Assembly: GCA_027310225.1 (NCBI GenBank)
Contig: DAIDBG010000244.1
Location: forward strand, 1 to 42,982
Direction of reading: 5' to 3'
Length of the DNA stretch: 42,982 nt
DNA from: a bacterium
GTDB taxonomy: Bacteria > Pseudomonadota > Gammaproteobacteria > Burkholderiales > SG8-41
The translations under genes and the position numbers were made by a program. The notes beneath the pieces were generated by a model. It saw nothing but the letters and a program-made list of their open reading frames with translations, made no database searches and was not told the DNA's origin. Shown piece after piece: positions 6,282 to 41,777 of this stretch; position 1 is the first letter of the stretch; the number at the start of each line of letters is the position of its first letter.

Positions 6282-6418
6282 GGCCTACTCCCATGAATGA
6301 CGAGCTCCGCCCCGATGGAGCGCATCGGGATTCTGCATGCGTAGCCCCTGACCGGCAACGTCCGCCCGGCGCGGCGCGGATCGGTTTTGGAACAACGGCA
6401 GCGGTAAGTCAGTCCTGC

Positions 6419-6432
6419 TTGATCTAGATCAA
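6419..6432 (+). promoter_or_regulatory. perfect FNR/CRP-family box TTGATCTAGATCAA
   Basis: 14-bp palindrome. TATGAT at 6454..6459 lies 21 nt downstream. Sits in the 350-bp gap between divergent genes 5691..6281 and 6633..7025. Confidence 0.55.
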
Positions 6433-6632
6433 CCTCTCCTCCACGCCCAGCCTTATGATTGTTCACATGATTCTCCGCGCCTCCCGGCAGAACAGCGGGA
6501 GCATGGCGGATCAGGGAAGTACCGCGCGCTTGTGCCGATGACGGGCGGGCCACAACACGTTGCCCGGCATTCAGTCCAGCACTTGCGGCAAAGCAACTGG
6601 TCCAATTCTTTACCTTTACAGGAGACGCTAAA

Positions 6633-7025
6633 ATGAAACGCTCGATTCTTTGTACCGCAGTCGCCGCCCTCGCCCTGTCCGCGCCGCTGGCCCTCGCTCA
6701 GGACGCTAAACCCGCGCCCGGCAAGCCGGCTGCGGGCATGGGCATGGAGATGGACATGAACAAGCAGACGGCGCAGGGGCAGGAGCAGATGAAGAAGATG
6801 CAGGAGCAGATGACCCGCATCCACGAGACGACGGACCCGAAGGAACGTCAGAAGCTCGTGCAGGAGCACATGCAGAGCATGCAGGAAGTCATGGGCACAC
6901 AGCGCGGCATGGGCGGCTCGACGATGATGGGGATGATGGGCATGATGGGCGGACCGGGCGGCATGGGCGGCGGGCAGAAAGGCGGCACGGGTCCCGGGAT
7001 GATGGAGTCAGCTCCGGCGAAATAA
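6633..7025 (+). CDS. secreted Met/Gly-rich protein (possible periplasmic Cu(I) binder or chaperone)
   Basis: AGGAG RBS, signal peptide ending ALA-QD, GMGMEMDM, helical Q/M-rich middle, and a MMGMMGMMGGPGGMGGG tail. Confidence 0.7.
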   Translation: MKRSILCTAVAALALSAPLALAQDAKPAPGKPAAGMGMEMDMNKQTAQGQEQMKKMQEQMTRIHETTDPKERQKLVQEHMQSMQEVMGTQRGMGGSTMMGMMGMMGGPGGMGGGQKGGTGPGMMESAPAK

Positions 7026-7091
7026 CGGACCAGGATCGCCATGACCCCCCTACGCCGACCGACTTTGGAAAACCACAAAGGAGCACGCCCG

Positions 7092-7496
7092 ATGCGCACA
7101 CGCCTGACCACCTTCATTCCTGGAATCCTCCTTGCCTTGCTCGCGGCCGGGGCCTTGGCCGCTGAGCTGCCCGCGCAGAAAAGCAGCGCTGGCGGCGTGA
7201 CTGTGGCGGTCACGCCGCAGAACCTCGTCGCCGGCGCCAAGAACTGGGACTTCAAGGTGGTGCTCGACACCCATTCGGGGGAACTGAATGACGACCTGGT
7301 CAAGACTGCCGCGCTGCTCGACGGCAAGGGCGGCCGGAATGTCCCCGTGAAATGGGAAGGCGCCGGACCCGGCGGCCATCACCGCGAAGGGGTGCTGCGC
7401 TTCGATCCGGTTTCGCCCCGGCCCGATTCGATCGAACTGCAGATCCAGCGCCCGGGCGAGCCGTCGCCGCGGTCGTTCCGCTGGCAACTCGAATGA
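7092..7496 (+). CDS. secreted hypothetical protein with GGHH motif
   Basis: ATG 7092 follows AAAGGAG, in frame within track ORF 7041..7496. Signal peptide present. Family not recognised. Confidence 0.6.
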   Translation: MRTRLTTFIPGILLALLAAGALAAELPAQKSSAGGVTVAVTPQNLVAGAKNWDFKVVLDTHSGELNDDLVKTAALLDGKGGRNVPVKWEGAGPGGHHREGVLRFDPVSPRPDSIELQIQRPGEPSPRSFRWQLE

Positions 7497-7540
7497 AATA
7501 GCGGCAACCGGCCGCTGTCCAACGCCAAAGGAGCCAGCTC

Positions 7541-7942
7541 ATGTACGGATTCAGCACCCGTCTCAGGGTCCCGTTCGACACCGCCGTCGAAAAAGTCACC
7601 GCAGCCCTCAAGACGGAAGGTTTCGGCGTGCTCACGGACATTGACGTCAAGGCGACGCTGAAAGCCAAGCTCGACGTGGAGCGGCGGCCTTATCGCATCC
7701 TCGGCGCGTGCAACCCGCCGCTCGCGCACCGCGCCATCGAGGCCGACCCGGACATCGGCCTGCTGCTGCCGTGCAACGTGGTGGTGCGCGAGGAAGACGA
7801 CGGCCGCATCTGGGTCGGGTTCATGGACCCGGAAGCCGTGCTCAAGCTGGTGGATAAGCCGGAAGTGCATGCGCTTGGCAGGGAAGTCCGGGCCCGCCTG
7901 CAACGGGTCTGCGAAGGACTCACACGCGACGGAACGCGATGA
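7541..7942 (+). CDS. DUF302 domain protein
   Basis: AAAGGAG RBS. Typical DUF302 sequence [17 protein letters not shown] ... YRILGACNP ... LLPCNVVV. Confidence 0.8.
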
Positions 7943-8712
7943 GCGGAGCCGCACCTCACGTCAATACCCAACGTCTGTGCCCTCATTGCGGCGCGCCGAC
8001 TTCCGGCACGCCCTATGCGCGTGAGCACGACGAATACGGCTGCGAAAGCTGTTTTCTCTCCGCTCGCAGACGGCAGGCGATGCCGCTCGAAGCTGATGAA
8101 ACACCGTTCGCGCTTGCGGAAGCGCTGATGTGTGCCCTGGATGCCCGGGAACACGAAACCGGGCTGCATTCGAAGCGGGTCGCCTGCCACACCCTGGTGC
8201 TCGCCCGTCATTTCTCCGGTGATGCAGGCGAGCTGCGCCAGGTTTACTGGGGCGCGCTGCTGCACGATATCGGCAAGATCGGCATCCCTGACGCCATCCT
8301 GCTGAAGCCCGCGCCGCTCACGCCGGAGGAGTGGCAGGTGATGCGCACGCACCCCGAAATCGGGCATCGCATCCTCTCCGGCGCCTCTTTCCTGGCGCAG
8401 GCGGCGGAACTCGTGCTGAGTCACGAGGAACGCTTCGACGGCACCGGCTATCCGCGCGGGCTGACGGGCGCAGCGATCCCGTTGTGGGCGCGGCTGTTCG
8501 CGGTCATTGACACGCTCGACGCCATCACCTCGGACCGGCCGTACCGCAAGGGGCTGCCGTTCGACGCGGCGCGGGCCCGAATCCGGGATCAGTCCGGAAG
8601 GCAGTTCGATCCGGCAGCGGTGGAAGTCTTCACGGCAGAGGAAACGACCTTGCGGGCAATGGTCGAGCTCAAATGCGGCGCGGCGGCGGTTCCCGATGAG
8701 CTGCTGGCCTGA
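7939..8712 (+). CDS. HD-GYP domain phosphodiesterase-like protein with N-terminal Cys4 module
   Basis: ATGA overlap with DUF302. N-terminal CPHCGAP-x16-CESC. HD-GYP signatures [11 protein letters not shown] and [14 protein letters not shown]. Confidence 0.8.
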
Positions 8713-9327: not shown

Positions 9328-9699
9328 ATGAGTGCGACCCGTAAACGCGATTCCCAGAACCACGCCTGCTGCGGCGGCGCAGCCCACGACGAGCACGCGC
9401 ACGCCGAGCCGGCCCCCGCCAAGCACGATCTTAAGCAGGAAGAGGCGCACGCCTGCTGCGGCGGCGGCGCAGCCCACGACGAGCACACGCACGCCGAGCC
9501 GGCCCCCGCCAAGCACGATCTTAAGCAGGAAGAGGCGCACGCCTGCTGCGGCGGCGGCGCAGCCCACGACGAGCACGCGCACACCGAGCCAGCCCCCGCC
9601 AAGCACGATCTTAAGCAGGAAGAGGCGCACGCCTGCTGCGGCGGCACAGCCCACGACGAGCACGCGCACGGCACAGCCGCACGGCGCACTTCACATTGA
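9328..9699 (+). CDS. tandem-repeat Cys/His-rich protein (4 units of HACCGG..HDEH.H), putative cytosolic metal binder
   Basis: AGGAG lies 6 nt upstream of ATG 9328. No signal peptide or TM helix. It is the first gene behind the mer-type promoter. Confidence 0.65.
   Translation: MSATRKRDSQNHACCGGAAHDEHAHAEPAPAKHDLKQEEAHACCGGGAAHDEHTHAEPAPAKHDLKQEEAHACCGGGAAHDEHAHTEPAPAKHDLKQEEAHACCGGTAHDEHAHGTAARRTSH
9361..9670 (+). repeat. direct tandem repeat, units of 87/90/90/43 nt, near-identical
   Basis: Units start at 9361, 9448, 9538 and 9628 (CACGCCTGCTGCGGCGGC...). In frame with CDS 9328..9699. Confidence 0.9.
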
Positions 9700-9720
9700 C
9701 ATGATTGGAAGCCACAGGCT
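9690..9720 (+). promoter_or_regulatory. CueR/MerR-type promoter (TTCACA, 19-bp spacer, CAGGCT) just upstream of copA
   Basis: Aligns without gaps to the sites at 27411 and 35284 (..ACATTG.CA.GAT.G.AAG.C..). Overlaps the stop codon of 9328..9699. Confidence 0.45.
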
Positions 9721-9730
9721 CTAGCCCACT

Positions 9731-16689: not shown

Positions 16690-17931
16690 GTGGCCGACGA
16701 TCTCACCCCCTTTCGCCAGCTGCTCGTCTCGCTGCTGCTCGGGCTGCTCGTCGGCATCCAGCGCGAATGGCGGCAGGAGAGCCTGGCGGGCGTGCGCTCG
16801 TTCACGCTCGTGACGCTGGCCGGCACCATCACCGCGATGCTCGCCGGGCAATTCGGCGGGATCCTGATGGCCGCCGCGGCGCTCGCCGTCACCGCGCTGA
16901 TCGTCATGAAGCAGCGGTATCAATCCCCGTCGGACGCCGCGAGCCCCGGGTTGAGCACGGAGTTCGCCCTTCTGGTGATGTTCGGCGTCGGCGCGCTGGT
17001 GCGCACCGCACCGGCCTGGGTGGCGATCTCCGCGGCCGGAATCACGGCCGTCATGCTGCAGGCAAAGATGGAGCTTCACGGCCTGGCGCGCCGGCTGACC
17101 CAGGAGGACCTGCGGTCGGTGTCGCAGTTCGTTCTGGTCGCGCTGGTCATCCTGCCGGTGCTGCCCGACGAAGCCTATGGTCCGTACGCGGTGCTCAACC
17201 CCCATCACATCTGGCTGGTCGTCGTGATCATCGTCGGCATCGGCCTTGCGGGCTACGTGGCGTACCGCCTGTTCGGCGAGCGCGCCGGAGCGCTGATGAG
17301 CGGCGTGCTGGGCGGCCTCATCTCCAGCACGGCGACCACCCTCGGTTACGCCCGGCAGGCGCGCGACAACCCCGGGCATGTTCATCACGTCGCCTTCGTG
17401 ATCGTGCTCGCGTGGGCCATCCCGTACGCGCGGATCGCAGTACTGGTGGGGCTGGTCACGCAGAGCCTGCGGCCCATCTATCTGCCGCTCGCCGCCTTGT
17501 TCGCCCTGACGCTGCTGTTCGCGGCGATGAACTGGCGCGGCACGAAAAAGGACATCGCCGGCATGCCGCCGCAGGAGAACCCGTCGGAACTGGGCACCGC
17601 GCTGGTCTTCGCTGTCCTCTACTCCGTGATCCTGCTCGGCGCGGCCTGGGCCCAGAACCAGATCGGCAGCCGCGGCCTGATCGCGGTCAGCGCGCTTGCG
17701 GGCCTCACCGATCTGGACGCGATCGCCTTGTCGGTGGCCCGCCTCGTCGAGAGCGGGCGCGCGGCCACGGCCGAAGCCTGGCCGGCAATGGCGACGGCGA
17801 TTTTTGCGAACGTGACGTTTCGCGGACTGGTTGCGTGGTCGGTCGGCGGGCGGGCCCTGTTTCGCGCGCTGGCCCTGCCGTGGATCGCGACGCTTGTCGC
17901 CATCGTCGTGCTGGCGCTGGCGGGAGCCTGA
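16690..17931 (+). CDS. MgtC/SapB-family N-terminus plus DUF4010-type polytopic membrane protein
   Basis: GTG start. LLLGLLVGIQREW..SLAGVRSFTLV, followed by about 10 TM helices. Confidence 0.75.
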   Translation: MADDLTPFRQLLVSLLLGLLVGIQREWRQESLAGVRSFTLVTLAGTITAMLAGQFGGILMAAAALAVTALIVMKQRYQSPSDAASPGLSTEFALLVMFGVGALVRTAPAWVAISAAGITAVMLQAKMELHGLARRLTQEDLRSVSQFVLVALVILPVLPDEAYGPYAVLNPHHIWLVVVIIVGIGLAGYVAYRLFGERAGALMSGVLGGLISSTATTLGYARQARDNPGHVHHVAFVIVLAWAIPYARIAVLVGLVTQSLRPIYLPLAALFALTLLFAAMNWRGTKKDIAGMPPQENPSELGTALVFAVLYSVILLGAAWAQNQIGSRGLIAVSALAGLTDLDAIALSVARLVESGRAATAEAWPAMATAIFANVTFRGLVAWSVGGRALFRALALPWIATLVAIVVLALAGA

Positions 17932-17948
17932 GGCGCCGGCCCGATCGC

Positions 17949-17962
17949 TTGATCTAGATCAA
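17949..17962 (+). promoter_or_regulatory. perfect FNR/CRP-family box TTGATCTAGATCAA upstream of ftsH
   Basis: TTAAAT at 17985..17990 lies 22 nt downstream. ftsH ATG at 18087. Confidence 0.55.
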
Positions 17963-18086
17963 CCGCCGGCGGAACCCTCTCTGGTTAAATGAAATCCAAC
18001 TTGTTGCGCCTAATTGAAAGGACATGAAGATGGAATGGTGGTCACCGTATCGGGACTTCAAAGCAGCGGCTTGAGCGGGACGCGCC

Positions 18087-19985
18087 ATGGAACGCAGGCA
18101 GCAGTTCTCGATCTGGTACTTCCTCAGCGTCTTTCTGATCCTGATCGCCTTCCAGAACCTCTTTTTCCAGCAGCACGTGGAAACGCTCGCCTACAACGAA
18201 TTCAAGTCAGCGCTGAAGGCGCGCAAGGTCATCGAGGTCACGCTCACGGATGAGGCCATCACCGGCAAGCTGGCGCGGGACGGGCTGGAGGGGCTGCTGC
18301 CGCCTGCGAGAGTTTCGGAATTGCAGCGCGCCAGCCAGGACCCGGGCCCGCACGCTTTCACCACGGTGCGCGTCAACGATCCCGAGCTGGTCCAGGAGCT
18401 GGAAGCCGCCCGGGTGCGCTTCAGCGGCCAGTTCGAGAACAAGTGGCTCGGCGCCATCCTCTCCTGGGTCGTTCCCGCCGTGATCTTCGTCGCCCTGTGG
18501 GGATTCCTCATGAAACGCATGGGCGCCGCCGGCGGCATGATGGAAATCGGCAAGAGCAAGGCCAAGGTCTATATGGAGAAGCAGACCGGCGTCACGTTCG
18601 CCGACGTCGCCGGCATTGACGAGGCAAAAACCGAATTGATGGAGGTCGTCGAGTTCCTCAGGACGCCCGGGCGCTACCGGCGGCTCGGCGGCAAGCTTCC
18701 GAAGGGCGTGCTGCTGGTGGGCGCACCGGGGACCGGCAAGACGCTGCTCGCCAAGGCGGTCGCGGGAGAAGCCAGTGTGCCATTTTTTTCCATGAGCGGC
18801 TCCGACTTTGTGGAGATGTTCGTCGGCGTGGGCGCCGCGCGCGTGCGCGACCTTTTCCAGCAGGCCGAAAAGACGGCGCCCTGCATCATTTTCATTGACG
18901 AACTCGACGCGCTCGGCAAGGCCCGCGGCATCAATCCGATGGGCGGCCACGACGAGCGCGAGCAAACCCTCAACCAGCTTCTCGTGGAGATGCACGGCTT
19001 CGACACCAACAAGGGCGTCATCATCATGGCCGCCACCAACCGGCCGGAGATCCTCGACCGCGCCCTGCTGCGGCCCGGCCGGTTCGACCGCCATGTCACG
19101 GTTGACCGGCCCGATCTCAAGGGCCGGGAAGCCATCCTGCGGGTGCACAGCCAGCATGTCATGCTGGCGCCGGAAGTGGACCTCACGGCGCTCGCGGCGC
19201 GCACGCCGGGCTTTGCCGGCGCCGATCTCGCGAACCTGGTGAACGAGGCGGCGCTGCTCGCCGCGCGCAAGGGCAGGAACGCGGTGGGGATGGCCGATTT
19301 TGACGAGGCCATTGATCGCATCGTGGCCGGCCTCGAGAAGAAAAACCGGGTGATGAACCCGATGGAGAAGGAAACGGTCGCCTACCACGAGGCCGGACAC
19401 GCACTGGTGGCGGAGTCGCGCCCGCACGCGGACAGGGTCGGCAAGATCTCCATCATCCCGCGCGGCATCGTTGCGCTGGGCTACACCCAGCAGCAGCCCA
19501 CCGAAGACCGCTACCTCCTGCGCAAGAGCGAACTGCTCGACCGGCTCGACGTCCTGCTCGGCGGGCGCGTCGCGGAAGACATCGTGTTCGGCGACGTCTC
19601 CACCGGAGCACAGGATGATCTTCAACGGGCGTCCGATCTCGCGCGCCACATGGTCACCCAGTACGGCATGAGCGAGAAGCTCGGCCTCGGGACCTTCGAG
19701 GAGCCCCGCGGCCCGGTGTTTCTCAACAACCCCACGGTGCAGGAAGCACGCTCGCTCAGCGAGCGCACGGCGCAGGCGATCGACCAGGAGGTGGCGCGGT
19801 TGCTGGCCGGAGCGCAGGAGCGGGTGCGCGCGACGCTGATCGAGCGGCGCGCCGCGCTCGATGCGCTCGCCGCGGTGTTGCTGGAAAAGGAAGTGGTGGA
19901 CGGCGCGACGCTGCGGGAGCTTCTGGCGCGCCATACCACGGGTGACAAGAGCCGCGGCCGCGCCGCTGAAAGCAAGGCGGCATGA
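18087..19985 (+). CDS. ftsH: ATP-dependent zinc metalloprotease FtsH (island paralog)
   Basis: Two TM helices, Walker [18 protein letters not shown], second region of homology, HEAGH zinc site. Confidence 0.92.
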
Positions 19986-22366
19986 AAACCCTCGTCATCG
20001 AAGTGGGCGGGCTGTTCTCGTCGCTGTGCGCCCGCGGCGTGGAAAAACAACTGCGCGCCCTGCCCGGCGTGACGCGCGCGGAAGTGAGCTACGCCACGGG
20101 CACCGCCACGCTCGCCTACGACGAGACCGCGACCGATCTCAAGGCGATCAAGGCGGTGGTGCAGGCCTGCGGCTACCACTGCGCGGGCGAGTCGGTCCCC
20201 GCGCACCTCTGCCATCCCGAAGATCCACCGGCGGACGCGGCCGTCGCAACCGCCGGCGCGGTGGCGCATGCGGGACACGCGCCTGCCGCGCACGTCGGGC
20301 ATGCGAAGCCTGCGGCCCCCGCGGCGCCGGCGAAGGCCCCGGCCGCGGCGCACGCCGCTCACGCCAGGGACGAGATGGCGCACGAGATGGGTCACGGCGC
20401 CGGCATGGACATGGCCGGGATGGCGCGCGACATGCGCAACCGCTTCATCGTCGCGTTCGTGTTCGCCGTGCCGGTCTTTCTCTACGCGTCGGTGATGACG
20501 CAGTTCCTTCAGCTCCAGCCGCCGTTCGGGCTGGAGATGAGCAAGTTCCTGTTCGTGCTCGCCACGGGCGCCATCCTCTACCCCTCCTGGCCGTTCGTCG
20601 TCGCCGCCTGGCGGGCGGTGAGGAACGGCGTCGCCAACATGGCGGTGCTGGTGGTGCTGTCGGTCGGCACGGGCTACCTCTTCAGCGTGGCCGCCACGTT
20701 CCTGTTCGAGGGCGAGCAGTTCTACGAGGCTTCGTCCGTGCTGCTGGTGTTCATCCTGCTCGGCCACTGGCTGGAGATGCGCGCCCGCGCCGGCGCCTCG
20801 GACGCGATCCGCGCGCTGATGGATCTCGCGCCGCCCATGGCGACGGTGGTCCGCGACGGCCGCGAAGTCGAGGTGCCGACCGCGGACGTCGTCAAGGGCG
20901 ACATCGTTCTCATCCGGCCCGGCAACAAGGTCCCGGTAGATGGCGAGGTCATCGAGGGGAAATCCACGGTGGACGAGTCCATGCTCACCGGGGAATCCAT
21001 GCCGGTCGGCAAGGCGCCCGGCGATACCGTGATCGGCGCCACCATCAACAAGAGCGGCAGCTTCCGCTACCGCGCGACCAAGGTCGGCGCGGACACCGCG
21101 CTGGCGCAGATCGTGAAGCTGGTGCAGGAGGCGCAGAACTCCAAGGCGCCGGCGCAGCGGCTCGCCGATCGGGCTTCCCAGTGGCTCGTGCTCGCGGCCA
21201 TCGTCATCGGCCTCATCACCTTCGCCGCGTGGTTCTGGTGGAGCGGCCAGACGCTGCTCTTCGCGCTGACGCTCACCATCACGGTGTTCGTCATCGCCTG
21301 CCCGGACGCGCTGGGGCTCGCGACGCCGATGGCGATCAGGATCGGCACCGGACGCGGCGCGCAGAACGGGATCCTGATCAAGAACGCCACCGCACTCGAG
21401 AACGCGACCCGGCTCGACGTGATCGTCTTCGACAAGACCGGCACCCTCACCCTGGGGCAGCCCGAAGTGGTCGCGCTCGCGGCCGCGCCGGGCGCCGCCG
21501 AGGACGAGCTGCTCGCGCTGGCGGGCGCGGTCGAGAAGCACTCCGAGCACCCGCTCGCGCAGGCGATCCTGAAGCACGCCGGCGGCCTCGCGCGGGAGAC
21601 CGCGACCGCCTTCACCAATATTGAAGGCCAAGGCGCGCGCGCCGACGTCGGCGGGCGAGCCGTCCTCGTCGGCAACCGCCGGCTGATGGACGCGGAGAAG
21701 GTGGATATGGCGGGTCTGGAGGCGAAATCCGCCGAAATGCAGGGGGCCGGACGCACGGTGGTGCACGTGGCGCGGGGCGGCAGGCTGGTCGGCCTGATCG
21801 CGATTGCCGACGCGGTGCGCCCCACCTCGGCGGCCACCGTGAAAGCGCTGCAGGAACGCGGCGTCCAGGTGGCGATGCTCACCGGAGACAACCGTGCGAC
21901 CGCCGAGCGCATCGCCCGGGAACTCGGCATCGATATCGTGCTGGCCGACGTGCTGCCGGGACAGAAGGCGGACGAGGTGAAGAAGCTCCAGCAGCAGGGA
22001 AAGAAGGTCGGCATGGTGGGCGACGGCGTCAACGACGCCCCCGCGCTCACCCAGGCCGAGGTCGGCTTCGCCATCGGCGCCGGCACCGACGTCGCGATGG
22101 AGAGCGCCGACGTGGTGCTGATGAAGAGCGATCCCCGGGACGTGGTGGGCGCGGTCGAGCTCTCGCGCGCCACGCTGCGCAAGATGAAGCAGAACCTGTT
22201 CTGGGCGGTGGGCTACAACGTGATCGCCTTTCCGCTCGCCGCGGGCGTGTTCTATCCCCTGCTGCTCAGCCCCGAGATCGCCGCGCTCGCCATGTCCGGC
22301 AGCTCGCTGATCGTGGCGGTGAACGCGCTGATGCTCAAGCGGACGCAACTCGCGGGACTCAAGTAA
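19982..22366 (+). CDS. CopB-like P1B-type ATPase with His/Met-rich N-terminus and CPD in TM4
   Basis: ATGA overlap with the ftsH stop. Degenerate HMA ([11 protein letters not shown]). [38 protein letters not shown] (codons 21299..21307). [20 protein letters not shown]. Confidence 0.9.
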
Positions 22367-24928: not shown

Positions 24929-25480
24929 GTGCGTGACGAAGTGTCTTGCGGCTCTGCACGAGGATCTTGTTCACAGCGATCGGGACTGGCGCTCGCGGGC
25001 CGGGCCCCGGCCGTCGCCGCTGCGTTCGGCATCGCGTTCGGATTCGTCGAGGCCGCGGTGGTGGTCTACCTGCGCGCGGCGATCGGTCTCGCCCCGGGCG
25101 GCGCGCCGGAAGATGCGCTGCCCCTCCTCGACCTCGCCCAGCCCCTGCTCGGCATCGAAGTCTTGCGCGAAGCGGCGACGATCGCGATGCTCGTCTCGGT
25201 CGCGCTGCTCGGCGCGCGGCGCGCCCGCGAGCGCTGGGCCATGCTCCTCTACGTCTTCGCCGTATGGGACCTCGCCTATTACGCCGGGCTGTGGGGAACC
25301 ATCGGCTGGCCGCCCTCGCTTCTCGCCGACGACGTCCTGTTCCTGATCCCGGTGCCGTGGATTTCCGACGTGTGGTATGCGGTGCTGGTCAGCAGCCTGA
25401 GCGTCCTCGCCGTCGTGACCGCGAGCCGCATCGGCCCGCGCGACCGAGCGTCGTCACAAGCCCGTCGCATGGATGCTTGA
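24929..25480 (+). CDS. polytopic membrane protein, unknown family
   Basis: Hydrophobic part of track ORF 24824..25480. GTG 24929 chosen to avoid overlap with the upstream gene; start uncertain. Confidence 0.5.
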   Translation: MRDEVSCGSARGSCSQRSGLALAGRAPAVAAAFGIAFGFVEAAVVVYLRAAIGLAPGGAPEDALPLLDLAQPLLGIEVLREAATIAMLVSVALLGARRARERWAMLLYVFAVWDLAYYAGLWGTIGWPPSLLADDVLFLIPVPWISDVWYAVLVSSLSVLAVVTASRIGPRDRASSQARRMDA

Positions 25481-25984: not shown

Positions 25985-26063
25985 CATGGCCGATCAATTC
26001 CGCCGGCAGGGCCATCGGGCGCAACGGCGCGGCATTGTGCATTGGACGAGCGGATCATGGAGT

Positions 26064-26077
26064 TTGATCCAGATCAA
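26064..26077 (+). promoter_or_regulatory. FNR/CRP-family box TTGATCCAGATCAA
   Basis: Both half-sites perfect. 68 nt upstream of the YHS gene ATG 26145. No convincing -10 seen. Confidence 0.4.
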
Positions 26078-26144
26078 CCCGCCGGCCGATGGGGGTGGCA
26101 GAGTGCAGCCTTGTTTGGTCCAACCCGTTAAGGAGAACCAGACC

Positions 26145-26339
26145 ATGAAAGTCACCGATCCCGTGTGCGGGATGAGCATCGAGTCGGAAAAGGCCCATGC
26201 CAGCGAAAAGTACCAGGGCAACACTTACTATTTGTGCTCGCCCCAGTGCCAGCAATCGTTCAAGGCGAACCCCGCGAAATTCGCGGCCAAGGCCGGCCCG
26301 GCCGGCGGCGTAGGCACCCACGGCGGGCACCATCACTAA
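26145..26339 (+). CDS. YHS/TRASH-type small metal-binding protein
   Basis: AAGGAGA RBS. In-frame ATG within track ORF 25986..26339. MKVTDPVCGMSI..YQGNTYYLCSPQCQQSFKANP...HGGHHH. Confidence 0.8.
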   Translation: MKVTDPVCGMSIESEKAHASEKYQGNTYYLCSPQCQQSFKANPAKFAAKAGPAGGVGTHGGHHH

Positions 26340-26853: not shown

Positions 26854-26888
26854 GATGTGCCTCCTTCAAATCGACACGACACGGAAAA

Positions 26889-26919
26889 ACGATACACCTT
26901 GCCACGATGAGAAGGTCAA
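26889..26919 (-). promoter_or_regulatory. CueR/MerR-type promoter (TTGACC, 19-bp spacer, TATCGT) with CCTT-N11-AAGG dyad
   Basis: The minus strand reads TTGACCTTCTCATCGTGGCAAGGTGTATCGT. Lies between divergent SPW-like and cueR genes. Confidence 0.55.
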
Positions 26920-26940
26920 GCCTCGCGCGGAAGGCGACTC

Positions 26941-27414
26941 ATGAATGACCGGCAGATGAACATCGGCGAGGCGGCGAGGCGCTCGGGCGTCTCGGCGAGG
27001 ATGATCCGTCACTACGAGTCGATCGGCCTCATCCCGAAGGCGCCGCGCGCGTATTCGGGGTATCGCGCCTACTCGGGCAACGACGTGCACACGCTGCGCT
27101 TCATCCGCCAGGCGCGCAGCCTGGGGTTCTCCGTGAGTCAGATCGAGCAGCTCCTCGGCCTGTGGCGCGATCAGAGCCGGCCGAGCCGCAGGGTGAAGGC
27201 GCTCGCGCTGGCGCACGTCGCCGAGCTCGAGCAGCGCATCCGCGAGCTCGGCGCCATGAAGCGCACGCTGGAGCAGCTCGCAGCGCACTGCCACGGCGAC
27301 GAGCGGCCGGAGTGCCCGATCCTCGACGGCCTCGCCGTACCGGCCGGCGCCCGCCGGCGATCGCCGGCCCGTCCGGATTTGACGCAGATCAAACCGAAGG
27401 CGCGCGCTTGTTGA
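26941..27414 (+). CDS. cueR: MerR-family Cu(I)-responsive regulator, CueR/HmrR-like
   Basis: MNIGEAARRSGVSARMIRHYESIGL and the C-terminal CHGDERPECPILDGL (C-x7-C) loop. Confidence 0.85.
   Translation: MNDRQMNIGEAARRSGVSARMIRHYESIGLIPKAPRAYSGYRAYSGNDVHTLRFIRQARSLGFSVSQIEQLLGLWRDQSRPSRRVKALALAHVAELEQRIRELGAMKRTLEQLAAHCHGDERPECPILDGLAVPAGARRRSPARPDLTQIKPKARAC
27379..27392 (+). promoter_or_regulatory. FNR-like box TTGACGCAGATCAA (one half-site mismatch)
   Basis: Inside the cueR 3' end, 18 nt upstream of the TTGACA at 27411. Confidence 0.3.
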
Positions 27415-27441
27415 CATTGCCATGATTGGAAGCCAGATGGG
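27411..27441 (+). promoter_or_regulatory. CueR/MerR-type promoter (TTGACA, 19-bp spacer) upstream of the PLD/cls gene
   Basis: TTGACATTGCCATGATTGGAAGCCAGATGGG. Near-identical core to 9690..9720 and similar to 35284..35314. Overlaps the cueR stop. Confidence 0.45.
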
Positions 27442-27466
27442 CAGGCCGACGAAAGCCAGTTGCGGG

Positions 27467-33891: not shown

Positions 33892-33926
33892 GTTCGTCTC
33901 CTTGGACTGGGATCAAGTTCGCGCCC

Positions 33927-33957
33927 ATCCTGCGCCTTGACACGCTGTCAAGGTCAA
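33927..33957 (-). promoter_or_regulatory. CueR/MerR-type promoter (TTGACC, 19-bp spacer, CAGGAT) with perfect palindrome CCTTGACA-GCG-TGTCAAGG
   Basis: Palindrome at 33935..33953. Overlaps the stop codon of cueR paralog 3 and lies upstream of the BI-1 gene. Confidence 0.55.
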
Positions 33958-34361
33958 GCCTCCTCGGCGAGCCCGTCCAGGATCGGGCAGTCCGGGCGCT
34001 CGTCGCCGCGGCAGTGCGCCGCAAGGTGCTCCAGCGTGCGCTTCATGGCGCCGAGGTCGCGGATGCGCGCTTCCAGCTCCGCGATGTGCGCCTGCGCGAG
34101 CGCCTTGACCTTGCGGCTCGGCCGGCGCTGGTCGTGCCATAGTCCGAGAAGCTGCTCGATCTGCTTCACCGAGAACCCGAGCGCGCGGGCGTGGCGCACG
34201 AAGCGCAGCGTGTGCACATCGCTGTGGCCGTAGGTCCGGTACCCCGAACCCGCGCGCTTCGCCGCGGGCAGCAGTCCGATTCCCTCGTAGTGCCGGATCA
34301 TCCTTGCCGAGACGCCGGAGCGCTTCGCGGCCTCTCCGATGTTCATCAGCGCATGGTTCAT
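33954..34361 (-). CDS. cueR: MerR-family Cu(I)-responsive regulator, CueR-like (paralog 3)
   Basis: In-frame ATG 34361 within track ORF 33954..34733. MNHALMNIGEAAKRSGVSARMIRHYEGIGL ... CRGDERPDCPILDGL. Confidence 0.85.
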   Translation of the reverse strand: MNHALMNIGEAAKRSGVSARMIRHYEGIGLLPAAKRAGSGYRTYGHSDVHTLRFVRHARALGFSVKQIEQLLGLWHDQRRPSRKVKALAQAHIAELEARIRDLGAMKRTLEHLAAHCRGDERPDCPILDGLAEEA

Positions 34362-34442
34362 CAACGTGCCTTCGGCGCGGAAAGATCGCGGATCGTCGTC
34401 CGTGTACATCCAGAAGGATGCGCCGGCACCGCGGCGCGGGGG

Positions 34443-34456
34443 TTGACGTGGATCAA
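34443..34456 (-). promoter_or_regulatory. FNR-like box (minus strand TTGATCCACGTCAA)
   Basis: One half-site mismatch. About 80 nt upstream of cueR paralog 3. No convincing -10. Confidence 0.3.
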
Positions 34457-35198: not shown

Positions 35199-35238
35199 GA
35201 CGTTTCTCCTTTCAGTTGGACTCACAAAAAACGATTGC

Positions 35239-35269
35239 AACATGCGCCTTGACATGGTTGGAAGGTCAA
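35239..35269 (-). promoter_or_regulatory. CueR/MerR-type promoter (TTGACC, 19-bp spacer) for the SPW-like operon
   Basis: The minus strand reads TTGACCTTCCAACCATGTCAAGGCGCATGTT. On the plus strand the dyad is CTTGAC-N11-GTCAAG. Confidence 0.5.
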
Positions 35270-35283
35270 GCCCCGCCTCCTGC

Positions 35284-35314
35284 TTGACATTGACACGATG
35301 GCAAGGCGCAGGCT
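35284..35314 (+). promoter_or_regulatory. CueR/MerR-type promoter (TTGACA, 19-bp spacer, CAGGCT), divergent partner
   Basis: TTGACATTGACACGATGGCAAGGCGCAGGCT, 38 nt upstream of ATG 35352. Confidence 0.5.
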
Positions 35315-35351
35315 TTGGGACACCCAACGTGGCGAGAAGGAGAGTTCTCCC

Positions 35352-36770: not shown

Positions 36771-36899
36771 GACAATGAGCAACTCGGCAGGCAGCGAAAG
36801 CATCGAGATCTTGCGCGAAGCGGCGACGATCGCGCCCCTCGCCATCGGATCGGCGCTCACCGGGTGGGGCCTGCTGCGCCTGAAAACAAGGCTTTACGC

Positions 36900-36940
36900 T
36901 TGATCTAGATCAACCGGGCCCCGGTGCCGGGGCTTATAAT
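36900..36940 (+). promoter_or_regulatory. perfect FNR/CRP-family box TTGATCTAGATCAA plus TATAAT 21 nt downstream (class II geometry)
   Basis: Box 36900..36913, TATAAT 36935..36940. About 130 nt upstream of copA ATG 37069. Confidence 0.6.
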
Positions 36941-37068: not shown

Positions 37069-39558
37069 ATGGGAACGATCGAGACTCGGACTGAACGCGT
37101 CGAGCTGCCGGTGTCCGGCCTGACTTGCGCGCATTGCGTGCAGACGCTCGAAAAGGCGCTTGCCGCCGTGCGCGGCGTCAAGCGTGCGGTGGTGAACCTC
37201 GCCGCGAGCCGCGCCTTCGTGGAGTACGACCCGGCGGAGACCGCGCTTCCCGCGCTGCACGAAGCGATCAAGGCGGCGGGCTACCGCGCGGACACGGCCA
37301 AGACCCGCTTCAAGATCGAAGGCATGACCTGCGCCTCCTGCGTGACGAAGATCGAGCAGGCGCTGCGCGAGACGCCCGGGGTGGTCGCGGCGAGCGTCTC
37401 GCTCGGAGCCGAGGAGGCGCTGGTCGAATATCACCCGGCGGTCGCGGACCACGCGGCGATCGAGGCCGCCGCGGCCTCGGCCGGCTACAAGGTGCGCGAA
37501 GCGCCCGCGCCTGCGGGCCCCGACGCGTTCGACCGCGAGCAGCAGGAGCGCGAGCACGAGTACCGCAGCCTCATGCGCAAGTGGTGGTTCGCCGCGCCGG
37601 TCGCCGTCTTCACGATGTTCATGAGCTATCCGTGGCTCTTCCCGGTGTTGCGCGACTGGTTCCCGCGCGGCAGCTCCCAGCTCTGGTACACCTGGGCGTT
37701 CATGGGCGTCGCCTCCGCGGCGGTGCTCGCCTACAGCGGCAACCAGTTCTTCACCGGCGCGTGGCAGGCGCTTCAGCACCGCTCGGCCAACATGCACACG
37801 CTGATCGCGATGGGCACCGGCGTGGCGTGGATCTATTCGACGATCATCCTGCTGTTCCCGCAACTGCTGCCGGCCTCCGAAGAGCTCGAGGTGTACTACG
37901 ACGTGACGGTGGTCGTCACCGCGCTCGTCGTGCTCGGGCTCGCCATGGAACTCAAGGCGAAGGGCAGGACCTCGGACGCGATCAAGAAGCTGATCGGCCT
38001 GCAGGCGAAGACCGCGCGCGTCGTCCGGAACGGCAAGGAACTGGACATCCCGGTCGAGGAGGTGGTGGTCGGCGATCTCGTGGTGGTGCGCCCGGGAGAG
38101 AAGATTCCGGTGGACGGCGAGATTTCAGAGGGCTCCTCCGCGGTCGACGAGTCCATGGTCACCGGCGAGTCGCTGCCGGTCGAGAAGAAGGCCGGCGACG
38201 AGGTGATGGGCGCCACCATCAACAAGACCGGCGCGTTCAAGTTCAGGGCGACCCGGGTCGGCAAGGATACCGCGCTCGCGAGCATCATCCGCATGGTGCA
38301 GGACGCGCAGGGCTCCAAAGTCCCGATCCAGAGGATCGTGGACGTGGTGTCGGGCTATTTCACTCCGGCGGTGGCGATCCTCGCCGTGCTCGGCTTCATG
38401 GCCTGGTACACGTTCGGGCCGGAGCCGCGCGTCGTGTTCGCGCTCATCGTGGCGGTGACGACGCTGATCATCGCCTGCCCGTGCGCGCTCGGCATGGCGA
38501 CGCCGATGTCGCTCACCACGGGCGTGGGCCTGGGGGCGCTCAACGGCATCCTGATCCGCGACGGCACGGCGCTGCAGAGCGCGCAGAAGCTCCAGACGAT
38601 CATCCTCGACAAGACCGGGACGATCACCCACGGCAAGCCGGCGCTGACCGACGTGATCACGGCCGGCGGCGTGCCCGAGGCGGACCTGCTGCGCCTCGCG
38701 GGAGGCGTGGAGAAGTCCTCCGAGCATCCGCTCGCCGCCGCGATCGTCGAAGGCGCATTGGCGCGCGGCCTGACGCTCGCCAATCCGGGCGAGTTCAACG
38801 CGATCCCGGGCCACGGCATCGAGGCGCGCATCGAGGGTCGCGCGCTCCTGCTCGGCAACGTGAAGCTGATGCGCGACCGGAAAATCGCGCTCGGCGCGCT
38901 GGAAGAGCGCGCGGCGCAGCTCGCCGACGAAGGCAAGACGCCGATGTACGTCGCCTTGGACGGCCGCGCCGCCGGCCTGGTCGCGGTGGCCGACACGATC
39001 AAGCCGGACTCGGTGGCGGCCATCGCCGCGCTCAATCGCATGGGCCTCGAGACGGTGATGATCACCGGCGACAACGAGCGCACGGCAAAGGCGATCGCCC
39101 GCCAGTGCGGCATCGAGCGCGTGCTGGCGGAAGTCCTGCCGCAGGACAAAGCCTATAACGTGCAGAAGCTCCAGCTCGAGGGCAAGAAGGTGGGCATGGT
39201 GGGCGACGGCATCAATGACGCGCCCGCCCTCGCCCAGGCCGACGTCGGCTTCGCCATCGGCACCGGCACCGACGTCGCCATCGCCGCCTCCGCCATCACG
39301 CTGATCAAGGGCAGCCTCCACGGCGTGGTGCTCGCCATGCAGATCAGCCGCGCCACGATGCGCAACGTGTATCAGAACCTGGTCGGCGCGTTCGTCTACA
39401 ACACGCTCGGGCTGCCGATCGCCCTGGGCGTGCTCTACCCCTTCTTCGGCATCCTGCTCTCGCCGCTGCTCGCCGCGATCGCCATGGCGTTCAGCTCGGT
39501 GACCGTGATTTCCAATGCCAATCGGCTCAAGCGGTGGAAGCCGCAGGTCGCCGTCTGA
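37069..39558 (+). CDS. copA: Cu(I)-translocating P1B-type ATPase with two HMA domains
   Basis: In-frame ATG 37069 in track ORF 37033..39558. GLTCAHC and GMTCASC, CPC ([11 protein letters not shown]), [20 protein letters not shown]. Confidence 0.92.
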
Positions 39559-39570
39559 AGGAGAAAGCGC

Positions 39571-39948
39571 ATGACCTGGGACAGAATCATCGTGGATGTG
39601 GTGGGGCTCGGGCTAATCGCCGGCATCGTCTGGTTTTTCTGGCTGGTGAAGACGAAGGGCGTGAAGGCCGCGCTCACGAGCGGCGGCTATCAGGAGCAGA
39701 TGGTGCTGGTGAAAGGCGGCTACACGCCGGATGTGATCGTGCTCGAGCGCGGCAAGCCGGCGCGGCTCAATTTCGTGCGCCAGGAATCGGCCTCGTGCAG
39801 CGAGATGGTGCTGATCCCGGCCTTCAACAAGAGCACGCAACTGCCCGAGGGGGAGACCGTCGCGGTCGAGTTCATGCCCGCCGAAACAGGGGAGTACGAG
39901 TTCGCCTGCCAGATGGGGATGCTGCGCGGCAAGCTGATCGTGGAGTGA
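39571..39948 (+). CDS. membrane-anchored cupredoxin-like protein commonly found after copA
   Basis: N-terminal TM helix. GGYTPDVIVLERGKPARLNFVRQESASCSEMVLIPAF...YEFACQMGMLRGKLIVE. Confidence 0.8.
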   Translation: MTWDRIIVDVVGLGLIAGIVWFFWLVKTKGVKAALTSGGYQEQMVLVKGGYTPDVIVLERGKPARLNFVRQESASCSEMVLIPAFNKSTQLPEGETVAVEFMPAETGEYEFACQMGMLRGKLIVE

Positions 39949-39953
39949 GCGTC

Positions 39954-41777
39954 ATGGGAAGCGGCGTCCCTTTCCGCGTGCTGACGATCAATGCCGGCAG
40001 CTCGTCGGTCAAGCTCGCGGTTTTCGACACCGCGGCCAACACGCAGCTCTTCAAGTCCGTGCTCGAGCGCGTGAGCTCGGTCGAGGACGCGGTGCGCGGA
40101 ATCCCGGCGCTGCTCAAAGCGCAGGGCATCGCCGCGCCCGATGCGGTCGGGCACCGCGTGGCGCACGGGGGCGCGAGGTTCCGCGACGCCTGCGCGATCG
40201 ATGCCGGCGTCATCGAGGCGATCGAGGCCTGCGTGCCGCTCGCGCCGATGCACAATCCTCTTGCGCTCGCGGGGATCAAGGCCGCCGCCCGCGCCTGGCC
40301 GGACGTGCCGCAGGTGGCGGTGTTCGATACCGCTTTCCACCAGACGATTCCCGAGCGCGCCGCGACCTACGCCGTGCCGCGGGCCTGGCGGGAGGCGGGC
40401 GTGAGGCGCTACGGCTTTCACGGCACCTCGCACAAGTACGTGATGCAGCGGGTGGCCGAGGAGCTGCGGACACCCCCCACGGAGCTGCGCATCATCAGTT
40501 GCCACCTCGGCAACGGCGCGAGCATCTGCGCCATCGAGCGCGGCGCGTCGGTCGACACCTCGATGGGCATGACCGCGCTCGAAGGGCTGGTGATGGGCAC
40601 GCGCTGCGGCGACGTCGATCCCGGGCTCTTCGCCCATCTGGAGCGCACGCTCGGACTCTCCGCCGCCGGGATCGAGCGCTCGCTCTATCGCGAGAGCGGC
40701 CTCGCGGCGCTCTCCGGACTGGGCAACGACATGCGCGACATCGAGAAGCGCGCCGCCGAAGGCGACAGGAACGCGCAGCTCGCGATCCAGGTGTATGCGT
40801 ACCGCGTGCGCAAGTACCTCGGCGCCTACGCCGCCGCCATGAGCGGTGTGGACGTCATCGCCTTCACCGGCGGCATCGGCGAGCACTCGGCCTCGATGCG
40901 CGCCCGCATTCTCTCCGGGCTCGAATTCCTGGGGCTCGCGCTCGACGAGGACCGCAACGCCGGCGTGCGCCTCGCCGATTCCGAGGCGCCGCAGATCCAG
41001 CGCGACAATTCGCGCGTGCGGGTCATCGTCACGCGCACGCGCGAGCAGTGGATGATCGCGCGCGAGACGGCGCGAATCCTCGCGCGCGAGACGGCGCCCG
41101 CGCAGGCGCCGGCGCCGATCCCGATCGCGGTTTCGGCGCATCACGTGCACCTGACGCAAGCCGCGGTCGAGCAGCTCTTCGGCGCCGGCCACCGGCTCAC
41201 GCTGCGCAAGGCGCTGAGCCAACCGGGGGCCTGGGCGGCCGAGGAGACGGTGGACGTGATCGGCCCGCGCGGCGAGCTGGCCCGTCTGCGCGTGCTTGGG
41301 CCCTGCCGCGAAGCGAACCAGATCGAGATCGCCGAAACCGAAGCCTACAAGCTCGGCATTGACGCGCCGCTGCGCCTGTCGGGCGACACGCGCGGCACGC
41401 CGGTGGTGACGCTGCGCGGCCCCACGGGAAGCCTGCGCACCGAAGGGCTGATCGTCGCCAAGCGGCACATCCACATGAGCCCGCAGGACGCCGCGGCGCG
41501 CGGCCTGAAGCACGGCGACCTCGCCGAGGTGGCGGTCAACTCGGAAGGTAGGGACCTCGTATTCCGCGACGTGGCGATCCGCGTCGATCCGCAGTTCGTG
41601 ACCGAGATGCACATCGACACCGATGAGGCGAATGCCGCGCATCTCGAGCACGGCGGCGCGGGAGAACTCGCGCCGGTCGAAGGCTGCAGCGCCCGTATCA
41701 CCCGCTGCCATGCTCCGGAAGGCGCCGGGGACACATCCTGCTGTCTGCACGAGCCCGAGGACAGGCGGGCAGCCTGA
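39954..41777 (+). CDS. fusion: acetate/propionate kinase (AckA) plus PduL-type phosphate acyltransferase
   Basis: In-frame ATG 39954 in track ORF 39534..41777. VLTINAGSSSVKLAVFD, HRVAHGG, SCHLGNGASI, FTGGIGEHS. Then the PduL repeats IAVSAHHVHL...VLGPCR and AKRHIHMSPQDA...EMHIDTDEANAA. Confidence 0.85.
   Translation: MGSGVPFRVLTINAGSSSVKLAVFDTAANTQLFKSVLERVSSVEDAVRGIPALLKAQGIAAPDAVGHRVAHGGARFRDACAIDAGVIEAIEACVPLAPMHNPLALAGIKAAARAWPDVPQVAVFDTAFHQTIPERAATYAVPRAWREAGVRRYGFHGTSHKYVMQRVAEELRTPPTELRIISCHLGNGASICAIERGASVDTSMGMTALEGLVMGTRCGDVDPGLFAHLERTLGLSAAGIERSLYRESGLAALSGLGNDMRDIEKRAAEGDRNAQLAIQVYAYRVRKYLGAYAAAMSGVDVIAFTGGIGEHSASMRARILSGLEFLGLALDEDRNAGVRLADSEAPQIQRDNSRVRVIVTRTREQWMIARETARILARETAPAQAPAPIPIAVSAHHVHLTQAAVEQLFGAGHRLTLRKALSQPGAWAAEETVDVIGPRGELARLRVLGPCREANQIEIAETEAYKLGIDAPLRLSGDTRGTPVVTLRGPTGSLRTEGLIVAKRHIHMSPQDAAARGLKHGDLAEVAVNSEGRDLVFRDVAIRVDPQFVTEMHIDTDEANAAHLEHGGAGELAPVEGCSARITRCHAPEGAGDTSCCLHEPEDRRAA

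Follow-up and report, generated by a model that had tools for sequence, protein, structure and literature searches.

The 18-mer palindrome GCTTGATCTAGATCAACC, which occurs in three exact copies in the 42,982 nucleotides analysed here, is in all likelihood a near-consensus FNR/Anr-type binding site in class II position, through which low oxygen would activate four predicted transcription units. The analysed stretch (hereafter the window) is the whole of contig C60 of a 3.34 Mb MAG (66% G+C, 386 contigs, 88% complete) from an uncultured member of the Burkholderiales, and it is matched by DNA runs labelled mine drainage metagenome and by no RNA run. Several features that can be read in the DNA itself point to this assignment, namely the sites, their excess over expectation, the distance from box to -10 hexamer, the regulators encoded in the genome and the conservation of two promoters.

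The initial annotation had placed the exact 18-mer at 6417, 17947 and 36898, in intergenic regions and in one orientation, and a direct scan bore this out: the three copies (6417-6434, 17947-17964 and 36898-36915) are all intergenic and all on the + strand, with about 0.01 copies expected in the window according to 100 dinucleotide shuffles. When the core TTGAT-N4-ATCAA was searched with at most one mismatch, we found six sites in the window against 0.37 expected, four of them exact and two with one mismatch:

6417-6434, + strand: predicted FNR box, site 1; exact 18-mer with its 14-mer core at 6419-6432 and its centre at 6425.5
17947-17964, + strand: predicted FNR box, site 2; exact 18-mer, core 17949-17962, centre 17955.5
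26062-26079, + strand: predicted FNR box, site 4; GTTTGATCCAGATCAACC, half-sites exact
27379-27392, + strand: weak box, TTGACGCAGATCAA, upstream of a PLD/cardiolipin-synthase-like gene; function uncertain
34443-34456, - strand: weak box, reading TTGATCCACGTCAA on the - strand, upstream of a CueR-like MerR gene
36898-36915, + strand: predicted FNR box, site 3; exact 18-mer, core 36900-36913, centre 36906.5

Site 2 begins 16 nt past the stop codon of a MgtC/DUF4010 gene, and site 3 shares bases with the stop codon of a gene remnant of 42 codons. The boxes at 26064, 27379 and 34443 had been grouped together as weaker copies, which is correct for the latter two, since each of them (27379, TTGACGCAGATCAA; 34443, TTGACGTGGATCAA) carries one half-site mismatch (TTGAC). 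It does not apply to 26064 (TTGATCCAGATCAA), the two-mismatch copy of the 18-mer that starts at 26062, whose half-sites are fully matched and which differs from the 18-mer in the centre and in one flank base. It is uncertain that the weak sites at 27379 and 34443 are functional boxes.

The genome-wide motif scan proposed in the initial annotation returned 27 exact occurrences of TTGAT-N4-ATCAA, about 0.26 being expected from composition (a roughly 100-fold excess), and eight control palindromes of matched composition occurred 0-3 times each. Nearly all 27 boxes lie outside long ORFs, as judged by a crude ORF call, and the long ORFs that contain the few others looked spurious. The window makes up 1.3% of the genome and yet holds four of these 27 boxes (P = 4e-4). 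Elsewhere in the genome, boxes are associated with Usp, CBS and PhaC genes and also with genes coding for a second cyclopropane-fatty-acid synthase, an acyl-CoA synthetase, an acyl-CoA dehydrogenase and a radical-SAM enzyme.

Each box of the window is followed at a narrowly defined distance by a hexamer resembling a -10 element. The positions given in the initial annotation for TATGAT, TTAAAT and TATAAT, 21-22 nt past the 18-mer boxes, were confirmed (21, 22 and 21 nt, respectively), and candidates were also identified for the other three sites:

6454-6459, + strand: -10 hexamer TATGAT of site 1, 21 nt past the 14-mer
17982-17990, + strand: extended -10 TGG-TTAAAT of site 2, with the hexamer at 17985-17990, 22 nt past the box
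26099-26104, + strand: hexamer of the candidate extended -10 TGG-CAGAGT of site 4, 21 nt past the box
27414-27419: candidate -10 GACATT for the weak box at 27379, inside a repeated MerR-operator-like element (D9)
34415-34420: candidate -10 CATCCT for the weak box at 34443
36935-36940, + strand: consensus -10 TATAAT of site 3, 21 nt past the box, with a predicted box centre at about -40.5

From these positions, transcription is predicted to start near 6466 at site 1 and near 17997 at site 2, with the box centres at about -40.5 and -41.5, respectively. TTAAAT, at the ftsH site, is the weakest of the three hexamers that follow an 18-mer and is devoid of the key A at position 2, but the TGG preceding it constitutes an extended -10 (TGn); in fact, both weaker window hexamers, TTAAAT and CAGAGT, have TGG directly before them. 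No independent sigma-70 promoter with a -35 element was found in the region upstream of ftsH (17700-18200), which fits activator dependence.

This geometry, which the initial annotation had recognized as that of class II promoters, recurs throughout the genome. For every box, taken in either orientation (54 oriented flanks), we counted the nANNNT hexamers by their distance downstream; 21 nt gave 13 and 22 nt gave 11, together 24 of the 54 flanks, against an average of about 1.4 for the other distances (P = 4e-16). A -10-like hexamer is present 21-22 nt downstream of 22 of the 27 boxes, compared with 11% of random positions. With the hexamer at -12 to -7, the predicted box centre falls at -40.5/-41.5, as in class II FNR promoters.

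Candidate regulators are encoded in the same genome. Among eight matches to the CRP-family HTH, two, both on contig C159, are Fnr-subfamily paralogues with scores of 272 and 237 bits, above the NCBIfam Fnr-subfamily cut-off of 228 bits (NF008365). Both contain the C-x2-C-x5-C motif and the equivalent of Cys122, and thus the four cluster cysteines, and their recognition helices read ETISR and ETVSR, in accordance with the E--SR motif. The E--SR helix of FNR reads TTGAT. The FNR homolog whose identification the initial annotation had recommended is consequently represented by two proteins that retain both the Fe-S cysteines and the E--SR helix. A third CRP-family protein has an RE--SR helix and is of the CRP/Vfr type; apart from it, the remaining matches are weak or degenerate, and no Dnr/NnrR-type protein without cysteines is present among the CRP-family matches of the genome. 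We also observed a fourth CRP/FNR-like ORF (C71:4978-5115) with an E--AR helix and an odd C-terminus, which may be a frameshifted or decaying paralogue.

One of the paralogues, fnr1, is divergent from hemN (577 bits), and the intergenic region contains TTGACCTACATCAA with a hexamer 21 nt downstream, so that a canonical member of the FNR regulon carries the box. The anr-hemN arrangement is classical in Pseudomonas. A search of the assembly, which is 88% complete, gave no cbb3 oxidase gene ccoN, a usual FNR/Anr target. The region C159:8600-14457 groups hemN and a radical-SAM/SPASM gene with the two fnr paralogues (fnr1 at about 11.65-12.95 kb on the - strand, fnr2 at about 8.6-9.4 kb on the + strand) and contains boxes at 11330, 11470 and 12987; autoregulation of fnr1 is suggested by the position of the last box, some 40 nt before the likely start of this gene on the other strand.

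The four strong boxes of the window precede four predicted units, and the weak box at 34443 precedes a regulator gene:

6633-8712, + strand: predicted site 1 unit, four genes
6633-7025, + strand: Met-rich secreted protein, site 1 unit
7041-7496, + strand: unknown secreted protein, site 1 unit
7541-7942, + strand: DUF302 protein, site 1 unit
7939-8712, + strand: HD-domain protein, site 1 unit
18087-22366, + strand: predicted site 2 unit, an FtsH paralogue (18087-19985) and a CopB-like P1B ATPase (19982-22366)
26145-26336, + strand: small metal-binding YHS-domain protein (PF04945, 50.5 bits), predicted target of site 4
33954 to about 34358, - strand: CueR-like MerR gene, downstream of the weak box at 34443
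37069-41777, + strand: predicted site 3 unit, composed of copA3, a cupredoxin-like gene and an acetate kinase-PduL fusion
37069-39558, + strand: CopA-type Cu(I) ATPase (copA3)
39571-39948, + strand: cupredoxin-like protein, after copA3
about 39891-41777, + strand: acetate kinase fused to a PduL-type phosphotransacylase

The ftsH and CopB-like ATPase genes overlap by 4 nt, and the site 2 unit may continue through co-directional genes to about 25984. The window encodes three P1B ATPases, two of the CopA type (at 9731 and 37069) and the CopB-like one (at 19982), and these pumps have HMA or His-rich N-termini. The CopB-like ATPase has a His-rich N-terminus, CPD in TM4 (near 21299-21307) instead of CPH/CPC and MSGSS in TM6; the CPD motif together with a neighbouring FtsH is found again in two MAGs at 78% identity, one from Nitrospirota (L062) and one from Pseudomonadota (L097). 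Also encoded are a haem-copper oxidase operon, four MerR/CueR-type regulators, DegP, a cyclopropane-fatty-acid synthase, MgtC/DUF4010, PLD/cardiolipin-synthase-like, CBS-BON and BI-1 proteins. In the site 3 unit, a long ORF starting at 39534 overlaps the cupredoxin gene in a different frame, which may reflect an alternative ackA start or an assembly frameshift. A search of the window against Rfam retrieved no known RNA families, which argues against a riboswitch in the long leaders. We noticed in the predicted ftsH leader, which would extend from about 17997 to the ftsH ATG at 18087, an upstream ORF of 16 codons (MKMEWWSPYRDFKAAA, 18024-18074) that has a good Shine-Dalgarno sequence of its own (AAAGGA); it may encode a leader peptide or have arisen by chance.

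Two promoters with the box are conserved among relatives. The orthologous promoter of site 1 is present in a congener (G023:C154), with a box (TTGATTTAGATCAA) that differs by one change, in the centre; TTATGATTGTT, in the -10 region, is also kept, while the 19-nt spacer between box and hexamer has diverged. Directly upstream of the site 1 box, the block TGGAACAACGGCAGCGGTAAGTC (6388-6410) is 100% kept in the same congener, the nearby intergenic sequence having diverged, and it may be a second regulatory site. The other conserved promoter is that of a second non-housekeeping FtsH paralogue (C254:3500-5402, - strand), 58% identical to the window FtsH, upstream of which we identified TTGATTTAAGTCAA-N22-TAGCAT. 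Its orthologues in two other genomes of the genus (G008 and G014, 80-81% identity) keep the arrangement box-N22-TAGCAT with different spacers, the conservation thus extending to three species. The contig with the housekeeping ftsH (C38) has no box.

The product of the window ftsH gene has no close orthologue in the genus, where relatives reach at most 65% identity, and the best relatives elsewhere share 77% (genomes) and 85% (metagenomes) of the amino acids; the closest ones outside the genus belong to Rokubacteria, Nitrospirota, NC10, Aromatoleum and Burkholderia. The box is present at promoter distance of these FtsH relatives in none of 80 genome and 80 metagenome loci, which indicates lineage-specific wiring, and the ftsH box would thus represent the lineage-specific recruitment of an acquired gene into a resident FNR regulon. 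A DNA search of the genus yielded no orthologous promoters for sites 3 and 4. No comparable locus having been found for sites 2-4, conservation cannot support them and speaks for site 1 and the second FtsH paralogue. A 38-nt likeness to the copA3 promoter in another genome of the genus (G005), comprising the box and a GC-rich spacer, precedes an unrelated EB_dh haem protein and was taken as chance. A plasmid collection contained no matching island, with only distant ATPase and FtsH hits of at most 77% DNA identity.

The identity of the three 18-mers extends beyond the half-sites to the flanks, and we examined whether these are peculiar to the window. With at most one mismatch, the 18-mer occurs in 15 of 33 congeners, mostly ahead of unrelated genes. 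A census of the genus around TTGATCYRGATCAA gave the half-site flanks GC (25), GG (21), CC (8) and CG (4) among 58, and the GC...CC pairing, observed at 12 of 29 sites, simply combines the two commonest ones; a special meaning of these flanks was accordingly rejected. Being built of the commonest flanks, the 18-mer corresponds to a consensus-strength site of this lineage (G-S-TTGATC-YR-GATCAA-S-C) and not to a separate element. Nevertheless, the four strong window boxes are more alike among themselves than to those of the rest of the genome, and their proximal flank CC is rare in other boxes, a likeness compatible with either recent promoter copying or selection for maximal affinity.

The surroundings of site 3 have a composite origin. 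The 42-codon ORF that ends in its box (36776-36904) is a patchwork of two gene remnants (family D19). The segment 36800-36870 shares 73% identity with 25152-25222, part of a membrane-protein gene (24946-25480). The segment 36832-36903 matches, at 79% identity, the 3' end of a congener's gene for an ABC-2-type permease (G042:C120), and this homology ends at the left edge of the box. This end point suggests that the module formed by the promoter and copA3 was joined there to older DNA.

We hypothesize that the regulator is a dimeric CRP-family protein of the FNR/Anr type, whose activity would depend on an oxygen-labile [4Fe-4S] cluster. Each box would occupy the -35 position of a promoter without a -35 element, some 40.5-41.5 bp upstream of the predicted start, and at low oxygen the palindrome would be occupied by holo-FNR, whose contact with RNA polymerase would bring about class II activation. 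The units so activated would be those coding for the Met-rich, DUF302 and HD-domain proteins, for FtsH and the CopB-like ATPase, for the YHS protein and for CopA, the cupredoxin-like protein and the acetate kinase-phosphotransacylase, to which the PLD gene, through the weak site at 27379, and the gene of the CueR-like regulator, through that at 34443 on the - strand, may have to be added. ATP would come from acetate kinase through substrate-level phosphorylation. FNR boxes ahead of four units would make the window a low-oxygen-activated metal, membrane and proteostasis island within a genome-wide FNR regulon that would also include hemN, Usp, CBS, PhaC, cyclopropane-fatty-acid synthase, acyl-CoA synthetase and the second FtsH paralogue. 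From this combination of features we infer that FNR binds the boxes, that it activates and does not repress, and that the signal is oxygen. Copper was described as more toxic under anoxia, with protein aggregation (PMC9040851), and Cu(I) toxicity without oxygen could be the physiological logic of the island.

Other explanations were considered for the same features. The 18-mer could be a repeat of non-regulatory origin, left by recombination between the modules of the island or belonging to a mobile element as its terminus or its target; the island is indeed a mosaic, the three copies are identical with their flanking bases included, and the site 3 box starts exactly where the truncated ABC-2 permease homology ends. 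We find this reading scarcely credible, because beyond the 18 bp the flanks of the three copies are unrelated and a repeat finder gave no longer repeat containing the boxes, all copies are direct and no two of them enclose a unit as an inverted pair, in 15 of 33 congeners the extended motif stands ahead of unrelated genes, and at site 1 the homology with G023 continues across the box. The subset of window ORFs that were scanned showed no transposase gene. The unrelated flanks rule out a mobile-element terminus, which the initial annotation had itself set against its interpretation, and, together with the direct orientation and the unrelated downstream genes, they led us to reject a REP-like repeat as well. 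That the sites bind FNR with a repressive or neutral outcome, the genes being driven by MerR/CueR-type regulators in response to metals, is also very improbable, even though the window encodes four MerR-family regulators and carries several MerR-type operator repeats. The distance from box to hexamer, common to 22 of the 27 sites, is that of activation and not of repression, no -35 element was found at the ftsH site, and the operator repeats belong to other promoters (9690, 26888, 33926 and 35238). In MerR/CueR-type promoters the operator dyad lies in a spacer of 19-20 bp between the -35 and -10 elements, and this organization was rejected for the boxes. A perfect 7-N2-7 dyad (GCCCCGG-TG-CCGGGGC, 36918-36933) does fill the spacer between the copA3 box and TATAAT, the usual position of a MerR operator, and counts in favour of metal-responsive control there; however, it is unlike the MerR-type operators of the island and is the only dyad in a box spacer, and it may be the site of a second regulator or a GC-rich chance occurrence. 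The operator-like repeats themselves form a family (e.g., CCTTGACACGCTGTCAAGG and TTGACATTGACATGATTGGAAGCC) at 9690-9729, 26888-26932, 27411-27450, 33926-33960 and 35238-35323, adjoining MerR/CueR genes and lying before or across the start codons of the copA1, PLD and CBS genes.

Somewhat less remote, although still improbable, is the possibility that these are genuine CRP/FNR sites that respond to NO, redox or metals, or that the two paralogues divide the regulon according to oxygen sensitivity. Two FNR paralogues are present, Pseudomonas putida has three FNR proteins with differing O2 sensitivities (PMC4505428), and the proximal flank CC of the four strong window boxes could mark a subset of sites. 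On the other hand, both paralogues keep the four cluster cysteines and exceed the Fnr-subfamily cut-off, the CRP-family matches of the genome include no Dnr/NnrR-type protein without cysteines, and GC and GG are the two commonest half-site flanks in the genus. Activation by an oxygen-sensing FNR/Anr protein hence remains our preferred interpretation, and the parts of the FNR-box proposal of the initial annotation that sequence can address (excess, geometry, regulators, hemN, conservation and the exclusion of a mobile terminus) were upheld.

A bolder proposal is that the island constitutes a dedicated anoxic copper and proteostasis regulon, in which identical promoters were transplanted to capture horizontally acquired modules; we regard it as unlikely. 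If it were true, FNR would act besides CueR-type sensors to pre-arm Cu(I) export, by CopA and the CPD-motif CopB-like pump, as oxygen falls, and the Met-rich and YHS periplasmic metal binders, a private FtsH and membrane-lipid remodelling would also be switched by FNR. Through such pre-arming the cell would be prepared for Cu(I), which is more toxic when oxygen is absent from the mine drainage, and the letter-identical promoters, one of them at a junction of gene remnants, would reflect recent capture by means of a ready-made FNR promoter. Independently of this proposal, the analysis provides a regulatory map for an uncultured mine-drainage member of the Burkholderiales, with four to six predicted low-oxygen promoters in the island, about 27 in the genome and two candidate FNR sensors.

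The promoters predicted here are of the known FNR/Anr class II type, ordinary in kind and with no new mechanism. The FNR consensus of E. coli is TTGATnnnnATCAA, and in 19 of the 23 promoters that FNR activates there the site has its centre at -41.5 +/- 4 (PMC3688515). The boxes of the window share the half-sites of class II FNR/Anr promoters (E. coli FNR, Pseudomonas aeruginosa Anr), with predicted centres at -40.5/-41.5, and are like them in having no -35 element, regulators with [4Fe-4S] cysteines and an E--SR helix, hemN as a target and a box beside fnr. The extended consensus is G/C-rich here (G-S-TTGATC-YR-GATCAA-S-C), unlike that of E. coli, in which FNR sites have A/T-rich flanks. The targets also differ, since class II FNR/Anr promoters serve anaerobic respiratory enzymes, whereas those predicted here are copper pumps, FtsH paralogues and lipid-modifying enzymes. 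FixK/Anr controls fixGHIS/ccoGHIS, which include the P1B ATPase FixI/CcoI, and the window resembles these operons in having a copper-translocating P1B ATPase behind an FNR-family box; unlike them, its pumps are of the CopA/CopB-like export type, and ccoN/ccoGHIS were not found in this genome. Another accessory module of the Burkholderiales read from an FNR-type box is alike in arrangement and different in cargo.

Of the systems described so far, the lxa locus of Burkholderia cenocepacia J2315 comes closest; it comprises about 50 genes with an Anr/Fnr-like inverted repeat at 17 intergenic points (Sass et al. 2013, PMC3721108). Low oxygen induces there an ATP-dependent Zn protease (130-fold), a cation ATPase (15-fold) and acetate kinase (75-fold), as well as a phosphotransacylase, a PHA synthase and two Anr-related regulators (PMC3721108). 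The window and lxa are similar in box density and overlap in content (FtsH-like protease, cation ATPase, acetate kinase/phosphotransacylase), and lxa-type USP, CBS and PHA synthase genes also bear boxes here, elsewhere in the genome. However, there is no synteny between them, the FtsH proteins are only 58-60% identical, and copper/MerR modules, not described for lxa, dominate the window. In Burkholderia loci with a 59%-identical FtsH, tandem TTGAT..ATCAA boxes are located 0.8-1.4 kb upstream, whereas here the box is immediately upstream. The combination known from lxa, in which Anr governs an alternative FtsH, a cation pump and acetate fermentation, would be extended here to a copper-resistance setting, with which the copper toxicity reported under anoxia (PMC9040851) fits.
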